Source: Candidatus Rokuibacteriota bacterium
Lineage (GTDB): Bacteria > Methylomirabilota > Methylomirabilia > Rokubacteriales > CSP1-6
DNA length: 64,000 nt
Assembly: GCA_016193045.1 (NCBI GenBank)
Contig: JACPSW010000086.1
Span: 11,135-75,134, forward strand
Direction: 5' to 3'
The position numbers were made by a program, and so were the translations under genes. Under the pieces are notes generated by a model. The model was not told the DNA's origin. It made no database searches and worked only from the letters and a program-made list of their open reading frames with translations. Numbering within the stretch: position 1 is the first letter of the stretch; every line of letters starts with the position of its first letter. Positions 8,394 through 57,900 of this stretch are shown here, in pieces.

Positions 8394-9476
8394 ATGGCGC
8401 GGCTGGACTACGAATCATTCCTCTCGGGGTTGCCCGACGCCGTCGTGGGCGTGGACGAGGCGTTCCGGATCATTCTCTGGAACGCGGCGGCGGAAGCGCT
8501 GACGGGCAAGTCCGCGCGGCGGGTCCAGGCCCGGACCCTGAAGGAGATGTTCGCTCCCGACTCGTCGCTGGCGCGGCACCTGAGTGAGACCCTCCGGACG
8601 GGAGAGAGCCGGTCGGAGGCCGAGGCGATGATCGAGGGGGTGGACGGTCGCCCGATCCCCGTGAGTATCGTGACCGCGCCCATCACGGGGAGGAGCGGCA
8701 ACGTCGAGGCCGCAGTCGCCGTGCTTCGCGACCTTTCGCGCATCCGCCAGCTCGAAGAGGAGGTGCGGCGGGGGGAGACCCTGGCGGCGGCGGGACGGAT
8801 GGCGGTGGGGCTCGCCCACGAGATCCGCAATCCACTCGGCGCCATCCGCGGGGCCGTGCAGCTCTTGAAGAAGGAGCTCGGGGAGGAGGCGCGCTGGCGG
8901 GAGTACACCGACGTGCTGATGAAGGAGGTCGATCGGGTCAACCGGATCCTCGAGTCGCTGCTCGACCTCGGACGGCCCGTCCAGCTCCGGCTCGGGCCGT
9001 TGAACCTTCACCAGCTTCTGGAGCGCGTCGCGCTCCTGTCGGAGGAGCTGGCGGCGAGCCGCGGCGTCCAAATCGTCCGGCGCTACGATCCGAGCCTTCC
9101 GCCGATCCTCGCCGACGAGGACCGGATCCTCCAGGTCTTCCACAATTTGGTGCGCAACGCCATCGAGGCGATGCCGCGGGGCGGCCGCCTCACCCTGACG
9201 ACGCGCCTCAGCATGAGCCCGCTCTTCGCCAAGGTGGACCTGGGGACCGGCGCGCGGCACTTCGTCGTCGTGCAGGTGGCCGACGAGGGCGAGGGGATTC
9301 CCGAGGCGCTCAGGGCCAAGATCTTCGACCCGTTCGTCACCACCAAGGAGCGGGGGCTGGGGCTCGGGCTGGCGCTCTGCCACCGGATCCTGGAAGAGCA
9401 CAAGGGCGCCATCCAGGTCGAGAGCGTCCCGGGCAAGGGCACCACGGTCTCGTGCTTCCTGCCGATCGCCAAGTGA
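8394..9476 (+). CDS. PAS-domain sensor histidine kinase (NtrB/AtoS-like)
   Basis: A PAS region is followed by H-box GLAHEIRNPLGAI and the HATPase motifs NLVRNAIEAM and GLGLGLA. It pairs with the downstream sigma-54 activator. Confidence 0.8.
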   Translation: MARLDYESFLSGLPDAVVGVDEAFRIILWNAAAEALTGKSARRVQARTLKEMFAPDSSLARHLSETLRTGESRSEAEAMIEGVDGRPIPVSIVTAPITGRSGNVEAAVAVLRDLSRIRQLEEEVRRGETLAAAGRMAVGLAHEIRNPLGAIRGAVQLLKKELGEEARWREYTDVLMKEVDRVNRILESLLDLGRPVQLRLGPLNLHQLLERVALLSEELAASRGVQIVRRYDPSLPPILADEDRILQVFHNLVRNAIEAMPRGGRLTLTTRLSMSPLFAKVDLGTGARHFVVVQVADEGEGIPEALRAKIFDPFVTTKERGLGLGLALCHRILEEHKGAIQVESVPGKGTTVSCFLPIAK

Positions 9477-9478
9477 TT

Positions 9479-9530
9479 CCCCCTCACCCCCCCCTCTCCC
9501 CCAGTGGGGGAGAGGACACGGGTGAGGGGG
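9479..9530. repeat. REP-like nested palindromic repeat element
   Basis: CCCCTCACCCCCCCCTCTCCCCCAGTGGGGGAGAGGACACGGGTGAGGGGG has an outer CCTCACCC/GGGTGAGG stem and an inner CTCTCCCCC-AGT-GGGGGAGAG stem. Related copies are at 48677-48724 and 8374-8393. Confidence 0.5.
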
Positions 9531-11042: not shown

Positions 11043-13085
<2,043 letters not shown>

Positions 13086-13338
13086 CTACGGTCGTACTCT
13101 ACCGCCGTGGCTGGGCAGCGTCAAGCCTTCCTGCGGCTGACCCCCACCCCCTCGCCCCCTCCTCGGGGAACCCCCCCACCGATAGTATTTTTTTCTTTTT
13201 TCCCCCTCGTAAACCGGCGATAATACGCTCGGCCGGATCGGGAGGCGCCGGGCGGCGTGGTTCCCCTTCGGCATTCGGCAGCGCAGGTGAACGCGGTTCC
13301 CTTTGCGCTCGAGGCTCCGCCTCGAGAGAGGAGAAAGC

Positions 13339-13497
13339 ATGGCGAAGAAGAAGGCGGCGTTCGGCGGCTACTCCATCAGCTTCAAGGGCTGCAAGGACTC
13401 GGCGGAGTCGATTTTCGGCTCGAAGCCGATCGGCCCCTCCGTCATGACAAAAAAGATTTGGGCCTACGTCAAGCGGAAGAGGCTGGCAAAGCGGTAG
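13339..13497 (+). CDS. Small basic protein (52 aa) whose sequence resembles the N-terminal half of a SWIB/MDM2 domain
   Basis: MAKKKAAFGGYSISFKGCKDSAESIFGSKPIGPSVMTKKIWAYVKRKRLAKR has an RBS GAGAGGAGAAAGC. The TKKIWAYVK motif resembles the SWIB motif (V)KKLWEYIK. The second half of the domain is missing. Confidence 0.3.
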   Translation: MAKKKAAFGGYSISFKGCKDSAESIFGSKPIGPSVMTKKIWAYVKRKRLAKR

Positions 13498-13598
13498 GAT
13501 TCCGCCCGGCGCTTCCAGGCTCAAGCGCATAGCGGGAGAGAGGACCCCGACGTCCTCGTCACGGGCCTCTCTCCTCGTTTCTCTGGTAGAATCCTCCC

Positions 13599-13949
13599 AT
13601 GGCGTGCCCGGTCCTCTACAACCGGGAGAGCTGACCCACCTGCCAGAAGGCGAGAGAGTTTCTCTCGCTGCGGGGTGTCGCCTACGACAGCCACCTTGTG
13701 GAAACGCGGCCCGTGACGCGCGAGGAGACCGTGGACCTCGCGCGGAAGGCGCGGCGTTTCCTGATCAAGCTCGGGCAGGATACGCTCAGGTTCGACGCGG
13801 CGACCAATCCCATCACCGAGGCGGAGGTCCACGCCTATCTCGTGCACGACGACGGCTTCCTCCGCGTGCCCGTGCTGGTGATGGGGGATCTCCTCGTTCG
13901 AGGCTACACCGAGGAGCTGTACCGGGAGGCCTTAGGAGGCAAGCCATGA
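13599..13949 (+). CDS. Candidate selenoprotein of the Spx/ArsC-family thioredoxin fold with a UxxC motif (in-frame TGA at 13632-13634)
   Basis: An RBS is followed by ATG 13599. The product MACPVLYNRES-[TGA]-PTCQKAREFLSLRGVAYD... aligns RES-U-PT-C-QKA with the Spx/ArsC N-terminal motif SPS-C-TS-C-RKA, so Sec replaces the first Cys of CxxC. The C-terminal RVPVLVMGDLLVRG fits the family. A downstream hairpin is present. Without readthrough only a 10-aa peptide, or a GTG-initiated fragment from 13698, would be made. Confidence 0.55.
13649..13669 (+). promoter_or_regulatory. SECIS-like hairpin downstream of UGA 13632
   Basis: GGCGAGAG-AGUUU-CUCUCGCU forms a 7-8 bp perfect stem. Its 5-nt apical loop contains G and U, about 24 nt 3' of the UGA. 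This geometry is typical for bacterial SECIS. Confidence 0.4.
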
Positions 13950-14287
13950 TCGTCAAGGAAACTGCGCGGAGCGTGTACCTGGACGTCTCCGGGATCGCCT
14001 GGGAGCCCGGTGAGCACCCGGGCGTCGAGACGAAGACTCTCTACCGGGAGCCCTCGGGCCGGCAGACGGTGCTGGTCCGCATGGCCCCCGCGGCCCGGCT
14101 GCCCGAGCATCGCCATCGAGGGGTGGAGCAGAGCTTCGTCCTGGAGGGAACGCTCGTGGACGACGAGGGGGCCTGCACGGCAGGCAACTTCGTCTGGCGC
14201 CGCCCCGGGTCGGTGCACAGTGCCTGGAGCCCCGACGGCTGCCTCATCCTCGCGGTGTTCGAAGCTCCCAACGAGTTCCTCGCTTAG
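13946..14287 (+). CDS. Cupin-domain protein (ChrR-like cupin)
   Basis: ...LPEHRHRGVEQSFVLEGTLVDDEG...VHSAWSPDGCLILAVFEAP is a cupin beta-barrel signature. Its ATGA overlaps the selenoprotein stop. Confidence 0.65.
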   Translation: MIVKETARSVYLDVSGIAWEPGEHPGVETKTLYREPSGRQTVLVRMAPAARLPEHRHRGVEQSFVLEGTLVDDEGACTAGNFVWRRPGSVHSAWSPDGCLILAVFEAPNEFLA

Positions 14288-14943
14288 AGGCGGGCGGGGA
14301 TCTGGTCGAGGCGCTCGACGGTGAGGTCCGGAGCGAAGCCCAACTCCTCCATCGGCGCCTTCTGGCGGTTGCACCAGCAGACGCGATAGCCGAAGGCCTT
14401 GGCCCCCGCCACGTCCCACGCGTTCGAAGACACGAAGAGCAGGTCCCCCGCGGCCAGCCCCATCGCCTTCGGCCCGAGGGCGTAGACGGCGGGCGACGGC
14501 TTGTAGGTCTTCACGGCGTCCACGGAGAGAATGTGCTCTAGGTACGGGCCCAGGCCGCTCGAGCGCACGGCCGCCTGCAGCATCCTCGGCGAGCCGTTGG
14601 AAAGAATCGCGAGGGGGGAGCCCTTGAGGCGCTCCAGCGCCGTCCTCACCTCGGGGAAGGCGGCGAGGGACAGATAGGCCTCCATGAGGCGCTGGAGCTG
14701 GGCCTCGCTGGCCGCGAGACCGAGCCGGCGGATGGCGAAGCGCAGGGCAGCCTCCGTCACCTGCCAGAAGTCCTCGTACCGTCCCATGAGCGCGCGCAGC
14801 CAGGTGTACTCCAGCTGCTTCTGGCGCCACGTGAGGGAGAGGGCCTGGGGATCCTGCGTGATCTCGCGGCCGGCCTCGATCACCGAATGGACGTCGAAGA
14901 GGGTGCCGTACGCGTCGAAGACGAACCCCCGGGGGAGAGCCAT
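14284..14943 (-). CDS. HAD-superfamily hydrolase (haloacid dehalogenase type II-like)
   Basis: FVFDAYGTLFDV matches HAD motif I DxxGTL. ...LSNG... and FVSSNAWDVAGA are further motifs. Confidence 0.8.
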   Translation of the reverse strand: MALPRGFVFDAYGTLFDVHSVIEAGREITQDPQALSLTWRQKQLEYTWLRALMGRYEDFWQVTEAALRFAIRRLGLAASEAQLQRLMEAYLSLAAFPEVRTALERLKGSPLAILSNGSPRMLQAAVRSSGLGPYLEHILSVDAVKTYKPSPAVYALGPKAMGLAAGDLLFVSSNAWDVAGAKAFGYRVCWCNRQKAPMEELGFAPDLTVERLDQIPARL

Positions 14944-54394: not shown

Positions 54395-54963
54395 CCCTTT
54401 CCATTCGTCCCCTGGCGCTGACGGACCGCGAGGAACTGGCCGCCCTGGTGGAGGCGAATCTCTCCGCCCTCGAAGGGGGGCTGTCCGTCCTGGAGCGGCG
54501 TTTCCCCGCCGGCCAGGTGCCCGTGGACCTGGTGGCCGTGGACGCGCGCGAGCGGCTCGTCCTCGTGATCCTGGGCTCGGGCTCCAATCCCGCCATGCTG
54601 CTCCAGAGCCTGGAGGCCTATGCCTGGTGCCGCGAGAACGGGGCGCTGCTCGGGCGTCTCCTTCCGGGCGTCCGGATCGACCCGGCCGCCCCGCCCCGGC
54701 TCTTCCTGCTGGCCCCGCGCTTCTCGGACAGCCTGCGACGCACGGCCCGCTACCTGGGCCCGCTCTCTCCCGTGCTCGTCGAATGCCGCTGCCTCGAGGT
54801 CAACGGCGAGCGCGGGATCTGTTTCGAGCCGGTGGAGGGGGACGTGGAGGCCGCGGCGCCGCCCGAGCCGGTCCCGCCGGCGCCGGGCGATGGCCCGCGC
54901 GAACGCGTCAAGCAGCTGGTGAGCCACCTGGAGCGCCTGAGCTTCGGGGAAGCGTTCCGGTGA
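54391..54963 (+). CDS. Hypothetical protein (190 aa)
   Basis: The ORF is co-directional and tightly packed (ATGA overlap) within the EPS locus. No motif is recognised. Confidence 0.35.
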   Translation: MTLSIRPLALTDREELAALVEANLSALEGGLSVLERRFPAGQVPVDLVAVDARERLVLVILGSGSNPAMLLQSLEAYAWCRENGALLGRLLPGVRIDPAAPPRLFLLAPRFSDSLRRTARYLGPLSPVLVECRCLEVNGERGICFEPVEGDVEAAAPPEPVPPAPGDGPRERVKQLVSHLERLSFGEAFR

Positions 54964-54972
54964 TCTAAGGCT

Positions 54973-57900
54973 ATGGCCCAGTACGAGATGAGCCTGCGCG
55001 ACCACTGGCGGATCATCCGCCGGCGTCGCTGGACTATCATCGTCTGCTCGCTCATGGTCGGCCTCTTCGCCTTCTGGTTCGCGCGGCAGCGGGAGCCCGA
55101 GTACCAGTCGACCGCGGCCATCAAGTTCGAGCAGTCCACCTCGCTCACCGGCCTTCTCGTCGAAGTTCTGTCGTTCTCTCCCTCCGACACCATCGAGACC
55201 CAGGCCGCCATCGTCCGGAGCTTCCCGGTGATGGAGCAGGTCGCCAAGCGTCTGGGCGAGCTGCCGACGACGATGCCGCCCGATGCGGTCAAGGAGTCGA
55301 GGGCGTACACGGGCGTCGTGGATGCGCTGGCGGCCAAGGTGAGGACCAACCGCGTCGCGAGCACCAACATCCTGGAGATCACCGCAACGTCGTCCGACCC
55401 GAGGAAGACAAAGGACCTGGCCAATGCCGTGGCCGAGGTGTACCGCGACGTCCAGAGCCGGACGCGGAACGCGCGGATCGTCGAGGCCCGCCAGTTCATC
55501 GAGCAGCAGCTCAAGGAGCTGGAGGGGCGGGTCAAGAGGGCGGAGGAGGCGATGTGGGCGTTCCGGGAGGCGAACCGCGTCATCGCGCCCGGCGCCGAAT
55601 CCACCGTGCTCCTCTCCCTCTTCACGCAGATCCGGGGCGAGATCGAGAAGACGCGCCAGCAGCGGACGGAGCTCGAGCTGGCGGCCGGCCGGCTGGGCCG
55701 CGCCAACGGCCCCGCGGCCCGGGAAGCGGATCGCGTGTACGTGGACACGGCCAATCCCGCCATGGTCCGTCTCCAGGCGACCCTAGCCGACCTGATGCTG
55801 GAGCGGAACAACCTGGCCCTGGAGGTGACCGACAGCCACCCGCGCTTGCAGGCCATCAACGACCGGATCCGCGAGGTCCGCGGCGAGATGCTGCGGGAGA
55901 TCCAGGCGCAGATCGCGCTCCTCCGGAACCGGGAGGAGATCCTCAGCCGTCAGATCGGGGAGCTCTTCCAGAAGAACCGGGAGGTCCCCACGATCGAGCT
56001 CTCCCTCCAGCGGCTCCAGCGGGAGGCGAAGGTCAACGACGATCTCCTCGCGCTGATGAAGACGCGCCATCAGGAAGCGCTCATCAAGGAGGCGGAGAAG
56101 ATCGAAGAGGTGACGATCATCCGCCCGGCGGTGGAGCCGTCGGCGCCGGTCGGGGGACAGGCGTTGTACCCGCTCCTGTTGGGTCTCGTGACGGGCCTGT
56201 TCCTGGGCCTGGTCCTGGCCTACGTCCAGGAGACCCTCGACACCTCCATCGGGACCATCGAGGAGGTCGAGGACTACCTGGGCGTCCCGGTCCTGGGGGT
56301 CATCCCGCACATCGACACGCGGGAGATCGTCGACCGTCTCATCGAGCGCCGGCCGGCGCTGGCCTCGCTGGACGCCGAGACGCTTTCGCGCCACGCGCTG
56401 CTGGTGTCCCACTTCGATCCCAAGTCGCCCGTGGCGGAGGCGTTCCGCAGCCTCAGGACGCGGATCCAGTTCACCACGATGGAGCACCCGGCGAAGGTCT
56501 TCCTCCTGACGAGCCCGACGCTCCAGGAGGGAAAGACGACGGTGATCGTGAACCTGGCGATCACGCTTTCCCAGGCTGGCCAGAAGACGCTTCTCGTGGG
56601 CGCCAACCTCCGCCGGCCGAGCATCCACAAGTTCTTCGGCCTCGATCGCGATCCCGGGCTCACCGACGTCCTCCTCGGCAACCTGCGGTGGGAGGACAGC
56701 ATCCGCACGGTCGCCGACATCCTGATGGGCCGCTTCGAGATGGAAGACATCATGACCGCTCCCGGGCTGGACAACCTCCACATCCTCCTCTCCGGCCCCG
56801 TGCCCGCGAACCCGTCGGAGCTGCTGTCGACCCCCCAGATGGCCGAGTTTCTCCGCCAGGCGCGGCAGCGGTACGACGTGATCCTTCTGGACGTCCCGCC
56901 CACGCTGCCGGTGACCGACGCCACCATCCTGGGCAGCCAGGTGGACGGCGTGATCCTGGTCTACCAGGCGGGCAAGGTGGGCCGGCTGGCCCTCAAGCGA
57001 GCCAAGATCCAGCTGGAGAGCGCGCGGGCCAAGGTGTGGGGCGTTGTGCTGAACGATCTGGGCGCCGAGATCGCCGGCTACGCCCCGTACCACCAGTACT
57101 ACACGCACTACTACGGGGAGGAGGGGACGGGGGAAGAAGGCCGGCGGGCCCCGCAGGGGCTGTCCGCGCGGCTGCTGGGCGCGCTCAAGGGGCTCGGGTC
57201 GCGCAAGCCGCCCCCCACGCCTCCCGCGGCGGCCCCGACGAGGGCGGAGGCCGCGAGGCCGGCGGCCAAGGCGCGGCGCCCCACGCAGTTCGGGGCCGGG
57301 GTCGCGCTCCTCGTGCTGCTGGTGCTGCTCCTGGCCGCGTTGCTGGCCTGGCGCCTGGGGCTCTTCGCGCCGACCGGCATGGGTCCCGTGCGGGAGCTCT
57401 TCCGCAGCACGCTCTCGGAGCGCGCCGCCCAGCAGAAGGGCCCGCCGGCGAGGCCGTCTCCCGCGCCGTCCCGGCCCGTCGACGCCCCGCCAGCCGGAAG
57501 GACGCCGGCCGCGCCCCCCGCGCCGCAGGCCGCGGCGTCGGCGAAGACCTCTGTCCCCGCCGACGTCCGCTATGCCCTGGAGTTCGGGCCGTTCGCGACG
57601 GCCGAAGAGGCCGAGCGCGTCGAGCGGCAGCTCAACGCGGCGGGGTACCCCACGGTGAGGTTCAGACAACAGGGCGGCGGCAATCTCTACGGCGTGTTTC
57701 TCGAGCGCGTCCCCGGCCGGCGCGAGGCCGAGGCGATCCAGGAGCGTCTCAAGGCCGAGGGGTATGCCCAGACGGCCCTCGCCGGGAGCGGGGACAATCT
57801 CTCGATCCGGGTGGGCGAGCTGACCCCGCTCCGGGCGGCGGTGCAGATCGCCGAGAAACTCCGGGCGGCGGGCTACCAGGTCCGCGTCGCCGTGCAGCCC

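Follow-up and report, generated by a model that had tools for sequence, protein, structure and literature searches.

How is a bacterial gene read when the codon for its presumed active-site residue is a stop codon? This question is raised by a short gene on the plus strand of contig JACPSW010000086.1 (assembly GCA_016193045.1, Candidatus Rokuibacteriota bacterium), of which a stretch of 64,000 nucleotides was analysed; this whole stretch is referred to as the window, and all positions are counted within it. The host is an uncultured soil or groundwater bacterium. NCBI lists the Rokuibacteriota as a separate candidate phylum and GTDB places the Rokubacteriales within the Methylomirabilota, and database records name close relatives either way. 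Direct reading from the ATG at 13599-13601 gives a predicted selenoprotein coding sequence at 13599-13949 (+), with 115 residues in 116 codons including the terminal TGA stop (13947-13949), and with an in-frame UGA at codon 12 (13632-13634), the inferred selenocysteine (Sec, U) codon. The translation is MACPVLYNRES*PTCQKAREFLS...RVPVLVMGDLLVRGYTEELYREALGGKP, where the internal asterisk is the TGA at codon 12, and the part following it is PTCQKAREFLSLRGV...FLRVPVLVMGDLLVRGYTEELYREALGGKP, up to the terminal TGA ending at 13949. The TGC codon at 13641-13643 encodes Cys15, the presumed resolving cysteine and the Cys of the UxxC motif U12-P-T-C15. An earlier reading of the same letters (the sequence-only reading) had proposed this frame with its internal TGA, and also that programs searching for open reading frames (ORFs) would split the gene; both proved correct, as the frame runs through to 13949, and the mechanical ORF list has as its sole entry for this gene an 83-aa piece with a GTG start (13698-13949). 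The deposited product is shorter still, a 78-aa 'hypothetical protein HYY64_11810' comprising the last 78 codons. As the gene itself and the nearby carboxypeptidase gene dacC both terminate with TGA, UGA is not reassigned in this genome. Weighing the comparative evidence described below, we consider it highly probable (at about 0.88) that selenocysteine is inserted at codon 12 in a manner dependent on SelB along with a selenocysteine insertion sequence (SECIS), giving a UxxC thioredoxin-fold oxidoreductase of the ArsC/Spx/YffB superfamily.

The TGA was compared in two sets of orthologous loci: a genome set, in which one genome per species was scanned and which holds 32 loci, all from Rokuibacteriota/Methylomirabilota or unnamed metagenome-assembled genomes (MAGs), and a metagenome set consisting of the best 80 retained loci among 272 relatives. 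The tblastn matches in the 32 genome loci run across the TGA, starting at residues 1-5 and ending at residues 112-116. A TGA is found at the codon-12 position in 26/32 genome loci and in 80/80 metagenome loci, while six genome loci (L023, L027, L030-L033) have TGC or TGT there. The UGA is always followed by the C of a proline codon (107/107 sequences, 27 from genomes and 80 from metagenomes). A start codon lies 7-11 codons before the TGA in 25 of the 26 loci, with the nearest in-frame start of L025 being 31 codons upstream, and the residues before the TGA are kept as [IV]-L-Y-[ND]-[RK] with synonymous changes between TAC and TAT, AAC and AAT, and CGG and CGC. The 11 upstream codons are thus translated, since they are conserved as protein with synonymous variation. 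The annotation of the relatives gives quite another picture: 196 relatives were found among 5.8 billion proteins, nearly all being 'hypothetical proteins' of 68-108 aa from Rokubacteria/Methylomirabilota MAGs, with called starts scattered just 3' of the UGA position (e.g. 'MKAREFLS' and 'MCAEAREFLS'). These annotated starts are spread across some 30 codons and there is no conserved in-frame restart codon. The clade is small, with 107 cluster representatives (50% identity) among 1.84 billion, and as far as seen it does not occur outside MAGs of the Rokubacteria/Methylomirabilota.

The orthologs with TGC or TGT show that Cys and UGA are equivalent at this position. Five of these six Cys forms keep flanking genes of the TGA forms, either a 52-aa gene upstream or genes for a haloacid dehalogenase (HAD) hydrolase and a D-Ala-D-Ala carboxypeptidase downstream, which makes them positional orthologs; the Cys forms also include P0072 and P0122, and in full-length relatives further removed the U site reads CPAC, CPSC or CxxC. 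In the TGA forms the motif is U-P-[TS]-C, and Cys15 is kept in 24/27 of them, with Ser at this position in L009, L021 and L029, which therefore read U-P-T-S and have no nearby Cys. In the Cys forms the motif is C-x-C-P-x-S, having an extra Cys two residues upstream and Ser in place of the Cys at +3. With Cys forms reading CxCPxS and three of the Sec forms UPTS, this suggests that the resolving-thiol arrangement changes along with Sec/Cys status. A separate observation concerns P0123, a 138-aa cluster representative reading '...LYSRSD-R-PSCAQAREFLS', which has Arg at the U site. A single step separates CGA from TGA; P0123 may have undergone a true change from Sec to Arg, or may reflect a variant or an error in its contig.

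With regard to the protein family, we read the U as Cys for the Pfam searches of the full-length protein. Pfam Glutaredoxin (PF00462) then matches residues 5-45 with 38.6 bits (cutoff 22.9), covering only positions 2-42 of the 60 in the profile (beta1-alpha1-beta2), after which comes an insert of about 45 residues, while Pfam ArsC (PF03960) matches residues 7-110 over profile positions 1-78 of 79, passing narrowly with 25.8 bits against a threshold of 24. The 83-aa fragment following the UGA is below the Pfam thresholds by itself (16.1 bits for ArsC), and because only the full-length protein passes them, the two halves belong to one protein. A profile built from 25 full-length orthologs was used to search the solved structures, and matched YffB (1rw1, E=7e-08), the ArsC-like protein SACOL0876 (2m46, E=1e-07), a dithiol glutaredoxin (7c10, E=3e-07) and Spx (E=9e-07). 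The U column aligns with the Cys of 'ACDT' in YffB, the first Cys of 'CTTC' in 2m46 and the first Cys of 'CPHC' in the glutaredoxin, and in both 2m46 and 7c10 the C15 column aligns with the second CxxC cysteine. The Spx/ArsC fold with U in place of the first Cys of the CxxC, as put forward from the letters of the gene, is therefore supported by both Pfam and the profile alignment.

An AlphaFold2 model was made of the Cys-form ortholog P0072 (pLDDT, the predicted local distance difference test score, 89.8). In this model the active-site residue is directly before helix alpha1 (H13-24), the canonical position of the thioredoxin-fold nucleophile, and the predicted layout is beta1-alpha1-beta2-[alpha-beta-beta-alpha insert]-beta3-beta4-alpha. 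The top Foldseek matches of the model in the PDB are Spx, YffB and ArsC-related structures, with template modelling (TM) scores of 0.5-0.56 and E-values of about 6e-04 to 2e-03; together with the profile-to-PDB matches, they corroborate the narrow Pfam ArsC result. No chain of R773-type ArsC, the glutaredoxin-coupled arsenate reductase with a catalytic Cys12, was present among the profile-to-PDB matches at E up to 1, and the R773 ArsC structures 1s3c, 1sd8 and 1sk0 were matched at the level of the fold only (TM of about 0.47, E 0.15-0.35). K57, R89, P91 and R101 are conserved in the family, with K57, R89 and R101 being invariant; judged by eye, these three might correspond to the anion-binding triad Arg60/Arg94/Arg107 of ArsC, and P91 to its cis-Pro loop.

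Among bacterial selenoproteins, the commonest kind has Sec in place of the first Cys of a thioredoxin-fold CxxC, and the ArsC-like UxxC type in particular has been known since 2006-2008. ArsC-like selenoproteins were described in 2006 (Zhang et al., PMC1794560), 'Arsenate reductase 2' (cd03032) was listed as a UxxC selenoprotein in the Global Ocean Sampling (GOS) analysis (PMC2398784), and the NCBIfam model NF041106 (ArsC_rel_Se_1, 'ArsC family (seleno)protein') is the curated form of the ArsC-like selenoproteins (PMC13188914). As in those proteins, we find a small ArsC/Spx thioredoxin fold with predicted Sec for the first Cys of the N-terminal CxxC, a putative SECIS directly downstream inside the coding region, and an uncharacterised function. 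NF041106 is the best NCBIfam match of the window protein, over profile positions 4-107 of 107, and the top NCBIfam model for 25/25 orthologs tested (lowest E-value 7.5e-16); as the score of 54.9 bits is under the curated cutoff of 85, we regard NF041106 as the nearest relative of the window protein, which itself lies outside the curated family. The window clade also differs from the ArsC-like selenoproteins in its confinement to the Rokubacteria/Methylomirabilota, in a predicted beta2-beta3 insert that is alpha-beta-beta-alpha instead of all-helical, and in Cys-form orthologs with CxCPxS instead of CxxC.

The best solved relatives are YffB (PA3664, 1rw1) and Spx (1z3e, 6ghb), with profile E-values of 7e-08 to 1e-06 over about 110 residues. 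They share the beta1-alpha1 active site, the cis-Pro strand 'L-[KR]-R/V-P-[IV]-[LV]' and a C-terminal 'G-[FY]', but the structural similarity is limited to the TM scores given above, and both use Cys where the window protein has U. Spx is an RNA-polymerase-binding regulator of Firmicutes, and the Spx/MgsR regulator models TIGR01617 (37 bits, cutoff 75.05) and NF002459 (24.9 bits, cutoff 123) do not include the window protein. Weak matches were also found to the UXX-star/Grx-like (glutaredoxin-like) selenoprotein families NF041212 and NF041114 (30.5 bits; 23/25 orthologs), which have a similar N-terminal beta1-alpha1-beta2 unit with U at the glutaredoxin active site; those proteins are only about 70 aa long and end soon after the motif, and here the similarity is limited to the first 50 or so residues, with scores far under the cutoffs.

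The other part of the argument concerns the RNA directly downstream of the UGA, where a SECIS-type hairpin lies within the codons for A18-R19-E20-F21-L22-S23 (13650-13668, +). The arms GCGAGAG (13650-13656) and CUCUCGC (13662-13668) enclose the loop AGUUU (13657-13661), which can be drawn either as a 7 bp stem with a 5-nt loop or as an 8 bp stem with a GUU triloop. The hairpin begins 15 nt after the UGA, and when taken alone it has a folding energy of -11.3 kcal/mol over 19 nt and of -12.9 kcal/mol over 21 nt. The perfect hairpin with SECIS-like geometry described by the sequence-only reading is thus present, and it falls within all criteria of the bacterial SECIS (bSECIS) model of Zhang and Gladyshev (2005), as far as these are summarised in section 5 of PMC13188914: an apical loop of 5 nt (model 3-9 nt), an upper stem of 7-9 bp (model 4-16 bp), a G among the loop's first two nucleotides (model N1-G-[G/U]-N-N2, A-G-U-U-U here), a distance of 22 nt from the UGA to the apical loop (model 16-37 nt), and a minimum free energy of -11.3 kcal/mol (model -7.5 kcal/mol or lower). 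As with the SECIS elements of Escherichia coli fdhF and fdnG, it is a stem-loop that lies within the ORF, shortly 3' of the UGA; its spacing and stability are in the range of the consensus, and its small apical loop has G and then U/G early on. Unlike the E. coli elements, it is very short and perfectly paired, has no bulged U, and is unrelated in sequence.

In the folding of the single sequence the hairpin is only modestly above chance, as the 59 nt from the UGA fold with -25.6 kcal/mol (z = -2.6) and 3/200 shuffled sequences were equally stable, and its significance consequently comes from the comparative data. Each of the 27 TGA-form loci has exactly one copy of the pattern TGACC-N4-T-N8-GCGAGRGRG-N3-CTCTCG, which is present in 0/6 Cys-form loci, and the arrangement GCG-AGR-GAG/GGG-NNN-CTC-TCG-(C) is present in all 27 genome TGA forms and in 80/80 metagenome forms, one of the latter having a single C-to-U change which keeps a G-U pair. 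Ala18 (GCG), Leu22 (CTC) and Ser23 (TCG) are each encoded by a single codon in 27/27 genes, whereas all 36 other conserved columns with four- or six-fold degeneracy vary in these 27 genes, with two to five codons per column (p ~1e-4 for this contrast, by our own Fisher arithmetic). Similarly, Arg19 is encoded by the rare AGR codons (AGA or AGG) in 27/27, versus 5/148 at the other conserved Arg columns. The alternation between A and G is confined to the stem position where both A-U and G-U can pair, while the loop codon is free to vary and encodes F, A, S or D (UUU, UUC, GCU, UCU or GAU). The Cys forms encode the corresponding A-R-R-A-L as GCC-CGC-CGC-GCG-CTC/CTG and have no common hairpin (folding z-scores of -0.7 to +1.2). 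This pattern of constraint argues for selection on the hairpin at the level of the RNA, in connection with the UGA.

Some observations weigh against this hairpin being a SECIS element or against selenocysteine insertion in general. Covariation in the stem is weak, with five of the nine pairs never varying and the shuffle controls not being exceeded, although a double change was seen in L017, where the loop-closing A-U pair is G-C; the covariation test is not significant because the stem hardly varies, and the case for an RNA element is therefore built on the freezing of synonymous sites and the linkage with the TGA, and not on covariation. There was no match of the hairpin to any Rfam family, either at gathering thresholds over the whole window or at E up to 10 in the region 13560-13760. 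Finally, the 64-kb window and 446 kb of related loci, a tiny sample, gave no selA, selB, selD or tRNA-Sec; the tblastn probes for SelA, SelB and SelD were approximate E. coli sequences, and the tRNA search was done with ARAGORN, which gave no tRNA-Sec in all 113 loci, an uninformative result given the small sample, with a tRNA-Thr being the sole tRNA of the window. On the other hand, the literature at the level of the phylum reports heavy use of Sec in this lineage: a 2026 review gives 63 predicted selenoprotein genes for one MAG of the Methylomirabilota, with reference to Deng et al. 2026, and the lineage is reported to have the largest selenoproteome predicted in bacteria (PMC13188914), and Sec-type group 4 hydrogenases are present in Methylomirabilota in a 2026 survey (PMC13582414).

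In the mechanism which we propose, a ribosome arriving at the UGA-C of codon 12 would by default be expected to terminate, and the hairpin at 13650-13668 would instead act as a bacterial SECIS, with SelB and tRNA(Sec) presumably incorporating selenium as selenocysteine. The product would have U12-P-T-C15 at the N-terminus of helix alpha1, facing the invariant cis-Pro-type loop (R-V-P91), and Sec, as the active-site nucleophile, would cycle between a selenol/thiol and a selenenylsulfide state while reducing a substrate.

One alternative keeps both SelB and the SECIS, and assumes that the UGA is decoded by a tRNA(ReC)/SelC*-type tRNA charged with Cys, giving a CxxC protein. The UGA, the hairpin and the Cys orthologs are equally compatible with it, as sequence cannot tell Cys from Sec insertion, and several bacterial phyla are reported to have tRNAs of this kind, which can decode UGA as Cys given a SECIS (PMC13582414, with reference to Vargas-Rodriguez et al. 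2018). In that survey, however, tRNA(ReC) comes mostly from genomes of Armatimonadota, Desulfobacterota and JAPLJL01 with UXXU motifs, and is not reported for Methylomirabilota. Maintaining a costly UGA and SECIS in more than 100 lineages just for inserting Cys would also be unparsimonious, as a TGC suffices, which is exactly what is seen in the Cys-form orthologs, and we consider this explanation very unlikely. The chances are slimmer still for read-through independent of SelB, in which a leaky UGA-C together with the hairpin would favour near-cognate decoding as Trp, Cys or Arg. In E. coli, termination is weakest at a UGA with C as the next base; this context is found in 107/107 sequences, and the Arg at the U site of P0123 is also in keeping with such decoding. 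Neither Trp nor Arg would be a substitute for the catalytic Cys that homologs have at the aligned residue, however, and the hairpin agrees with a SECIS in its geometry and in the loop rule, having G at position 2 of the loop, unlike a generic stimulator of read-through; the sequence-specific nature of the stem invariance further suggests that the stem is a protein-binding site.

It is just as improbable that the UGA is a true stop, with an 11-codon leader peptide, separate initiation of the C-terminal fragment, and a hairpin with a regulatory role in attenuation or coupling. The public annotations do hold only the downstream ORFs of 68-108 aa, and the purine-rich GAGRGAG of the hairpin could resemble a Shine-Dalgarno sequence, but the scattered annotated starts without a common restart codon and the failure of the post-UGA fragment to reach the Pfam thresholds both argue against such a fragment being made independently, and the 'leader' plus the first 20 codons after the UGA together form beta1-alpha1 and the active site, which are contiguous in the Cys orthologs. 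A TGA created by a sequencing error had been named by the sequence-only reading as another way in which selenocysteine insertion could be wrong. Such an error, or a pseudogene or an error in assembly, has nothing in its favour beyond the appearance of the single sequence, and we regard it as refuted, since 107 independent assemblies have the identical TGA, 26 species-level MAGs and 80 metagenome contigs among them, with purifying selection on both sides of the TGA and an RNA element linked to it.

All predictions of the selenoprotein reading that could be put to the test held. Selenocysteine insertion thus being the preferred explanation, the locus is a well-supported predicted selenoprotein gene of the already known ArsC-like UxxC type and brings no new principle, and the understanding of Sec decoding and of the ArsC/Spx fold is unchanged. 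Its consequences are mostly for annotation, since more than 190 entries of this family are 'hypothetical proteins' cut short of the active site, a systematic error which can be corrected, and a family with more than 100 independent instances of TGA plus hairpin would be added to the selenoproteome of the Rokubacteria/Methylomirabilota. The presence of Sec and Cys orthologs in one gene neighbourhood also provides a natural experiment, in which the putative SECIS is present or erased and UxxC is changed to CxCPxS, and the 19-nt hairpin, which is nearly invariant, is put forward as a candidate minimal SelB-binding element of the lineage which could help to find its other selenoprotein genes.

One claim of the sequence-only reading did not hold, namely that the ATG at 13599 is preceded by a ribosome binding site. 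The sequence upstream is TGG-TAGAAT-CCTCCC-ATG and has no Shine-Dalgarno sequence, as CCTCCC is the anti-Shine-Dalgarno sequence itself and not its complement. The hexamer TAGAAT (13587-13592, +), preceded by TGG and located 6 nt before the ATG, resembles a -10 box and is the presumed promoter of a leaderless mRNA. In the aligned upstream regions, about 20 of 33 orthologous loci have TACAAT, TATACT, TATAGT, CACACT or GACACT at a distance of 6-10 nt from the start, and about seven loci (e.g. L006, L007, L013 and L017) have a GGAG-type Shine-Dalgarno sequence instead. As there is no Shine-Dalgarno sequence and a -10-like hexamer lies just before the start, the window gene is probably transcribed as a leaderless mRNA, in which case the SECIS would be only some 50 nt from the 5' end of a selenoprotein mRNA. 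A scan for promoters and terminators in 13300-14400 found nothing, the consensus promoter scan demanding a -35 element. The intergenic region 13498-13598 (+) contains a strong hairpin (GGGAGAGAGG...CCUCUCUCC) followed by the U-rich UCGUUUCUCU (-46.8 kcal/mol, z = -3.6), which abuts the -10-like element; it was not called by the consensus terminator scan, and probably serves the upstream gene as its intrinsic terminator.

Directly downstream of the predicted selenoprotein gene is a gene for a stand-alone ChrR cupin-like protein of 113 aa (Cupin_7, PF12973, 73.8 bits; 13946-14287, +). Its ATG overlaps the selenoprotein stop codon (ATGA), and the two genes are therefore probably co-transcribed and translationally coupled. 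A cupin gene is directly downstream in 29/98 testable Sec-form loci, 24 of these having the same 4-nt overlap, and in 0/6 Cys-form loci, and the pairing is thus a clade-specific association and not a defining one. It is conceivable, albeit unlikely, that this is a distinct, lineage-restricted ArsC/Spx branch and more than a further housekeeping redox selenoprotein, in which case the UxxC selenol/thiol switch and the coupled ChrR-type cupin would form a stress-sensing or regulatory pair, for instance with a Sec-using Spx-like redox regulator made from a leaderless mRNA.

The gene on the other side (13339-13497, +) encodes the conserved 52-aa basic protein MAKKKAAFGGYSISFKGCKDS...KKIWAYVKRKRLAKR, and in 17 genome loci and 22 metagenome loci it directly precedes the Sec or Cys gene; a SWIB-like label for this protein was dropped, as it has no Pfam match. 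The window was also searched for other selenoprotein genes (in-frame TGAs with a nearby Cys, high G+C content at third codon positions and a downstream hairpin), and only the ArsC/Spx-like gene family described here stood out, with the rest looking like off-frame junk rich in Arg, Ser and Pro. The TGAs at 54961-54975 (+), between ORFs of 447 aa and 1016 aa, and at 9474-9506 (+), between ORFs of 360 aa and 498 aa, were rejected as ordinary adjacent genes in the same frame, each downstream ORF having its own start 9-30 nt past the stop. Further upstream and divergent from the selenoprotein region is thiC (ThiC_Rad_SAM, 633 bits; 11273-13021, -), which is preceded by a thiamine pyrophosphate (TPP) riboswitch (Rfam RF00059, 60.1 bits; 12974-13084, -).

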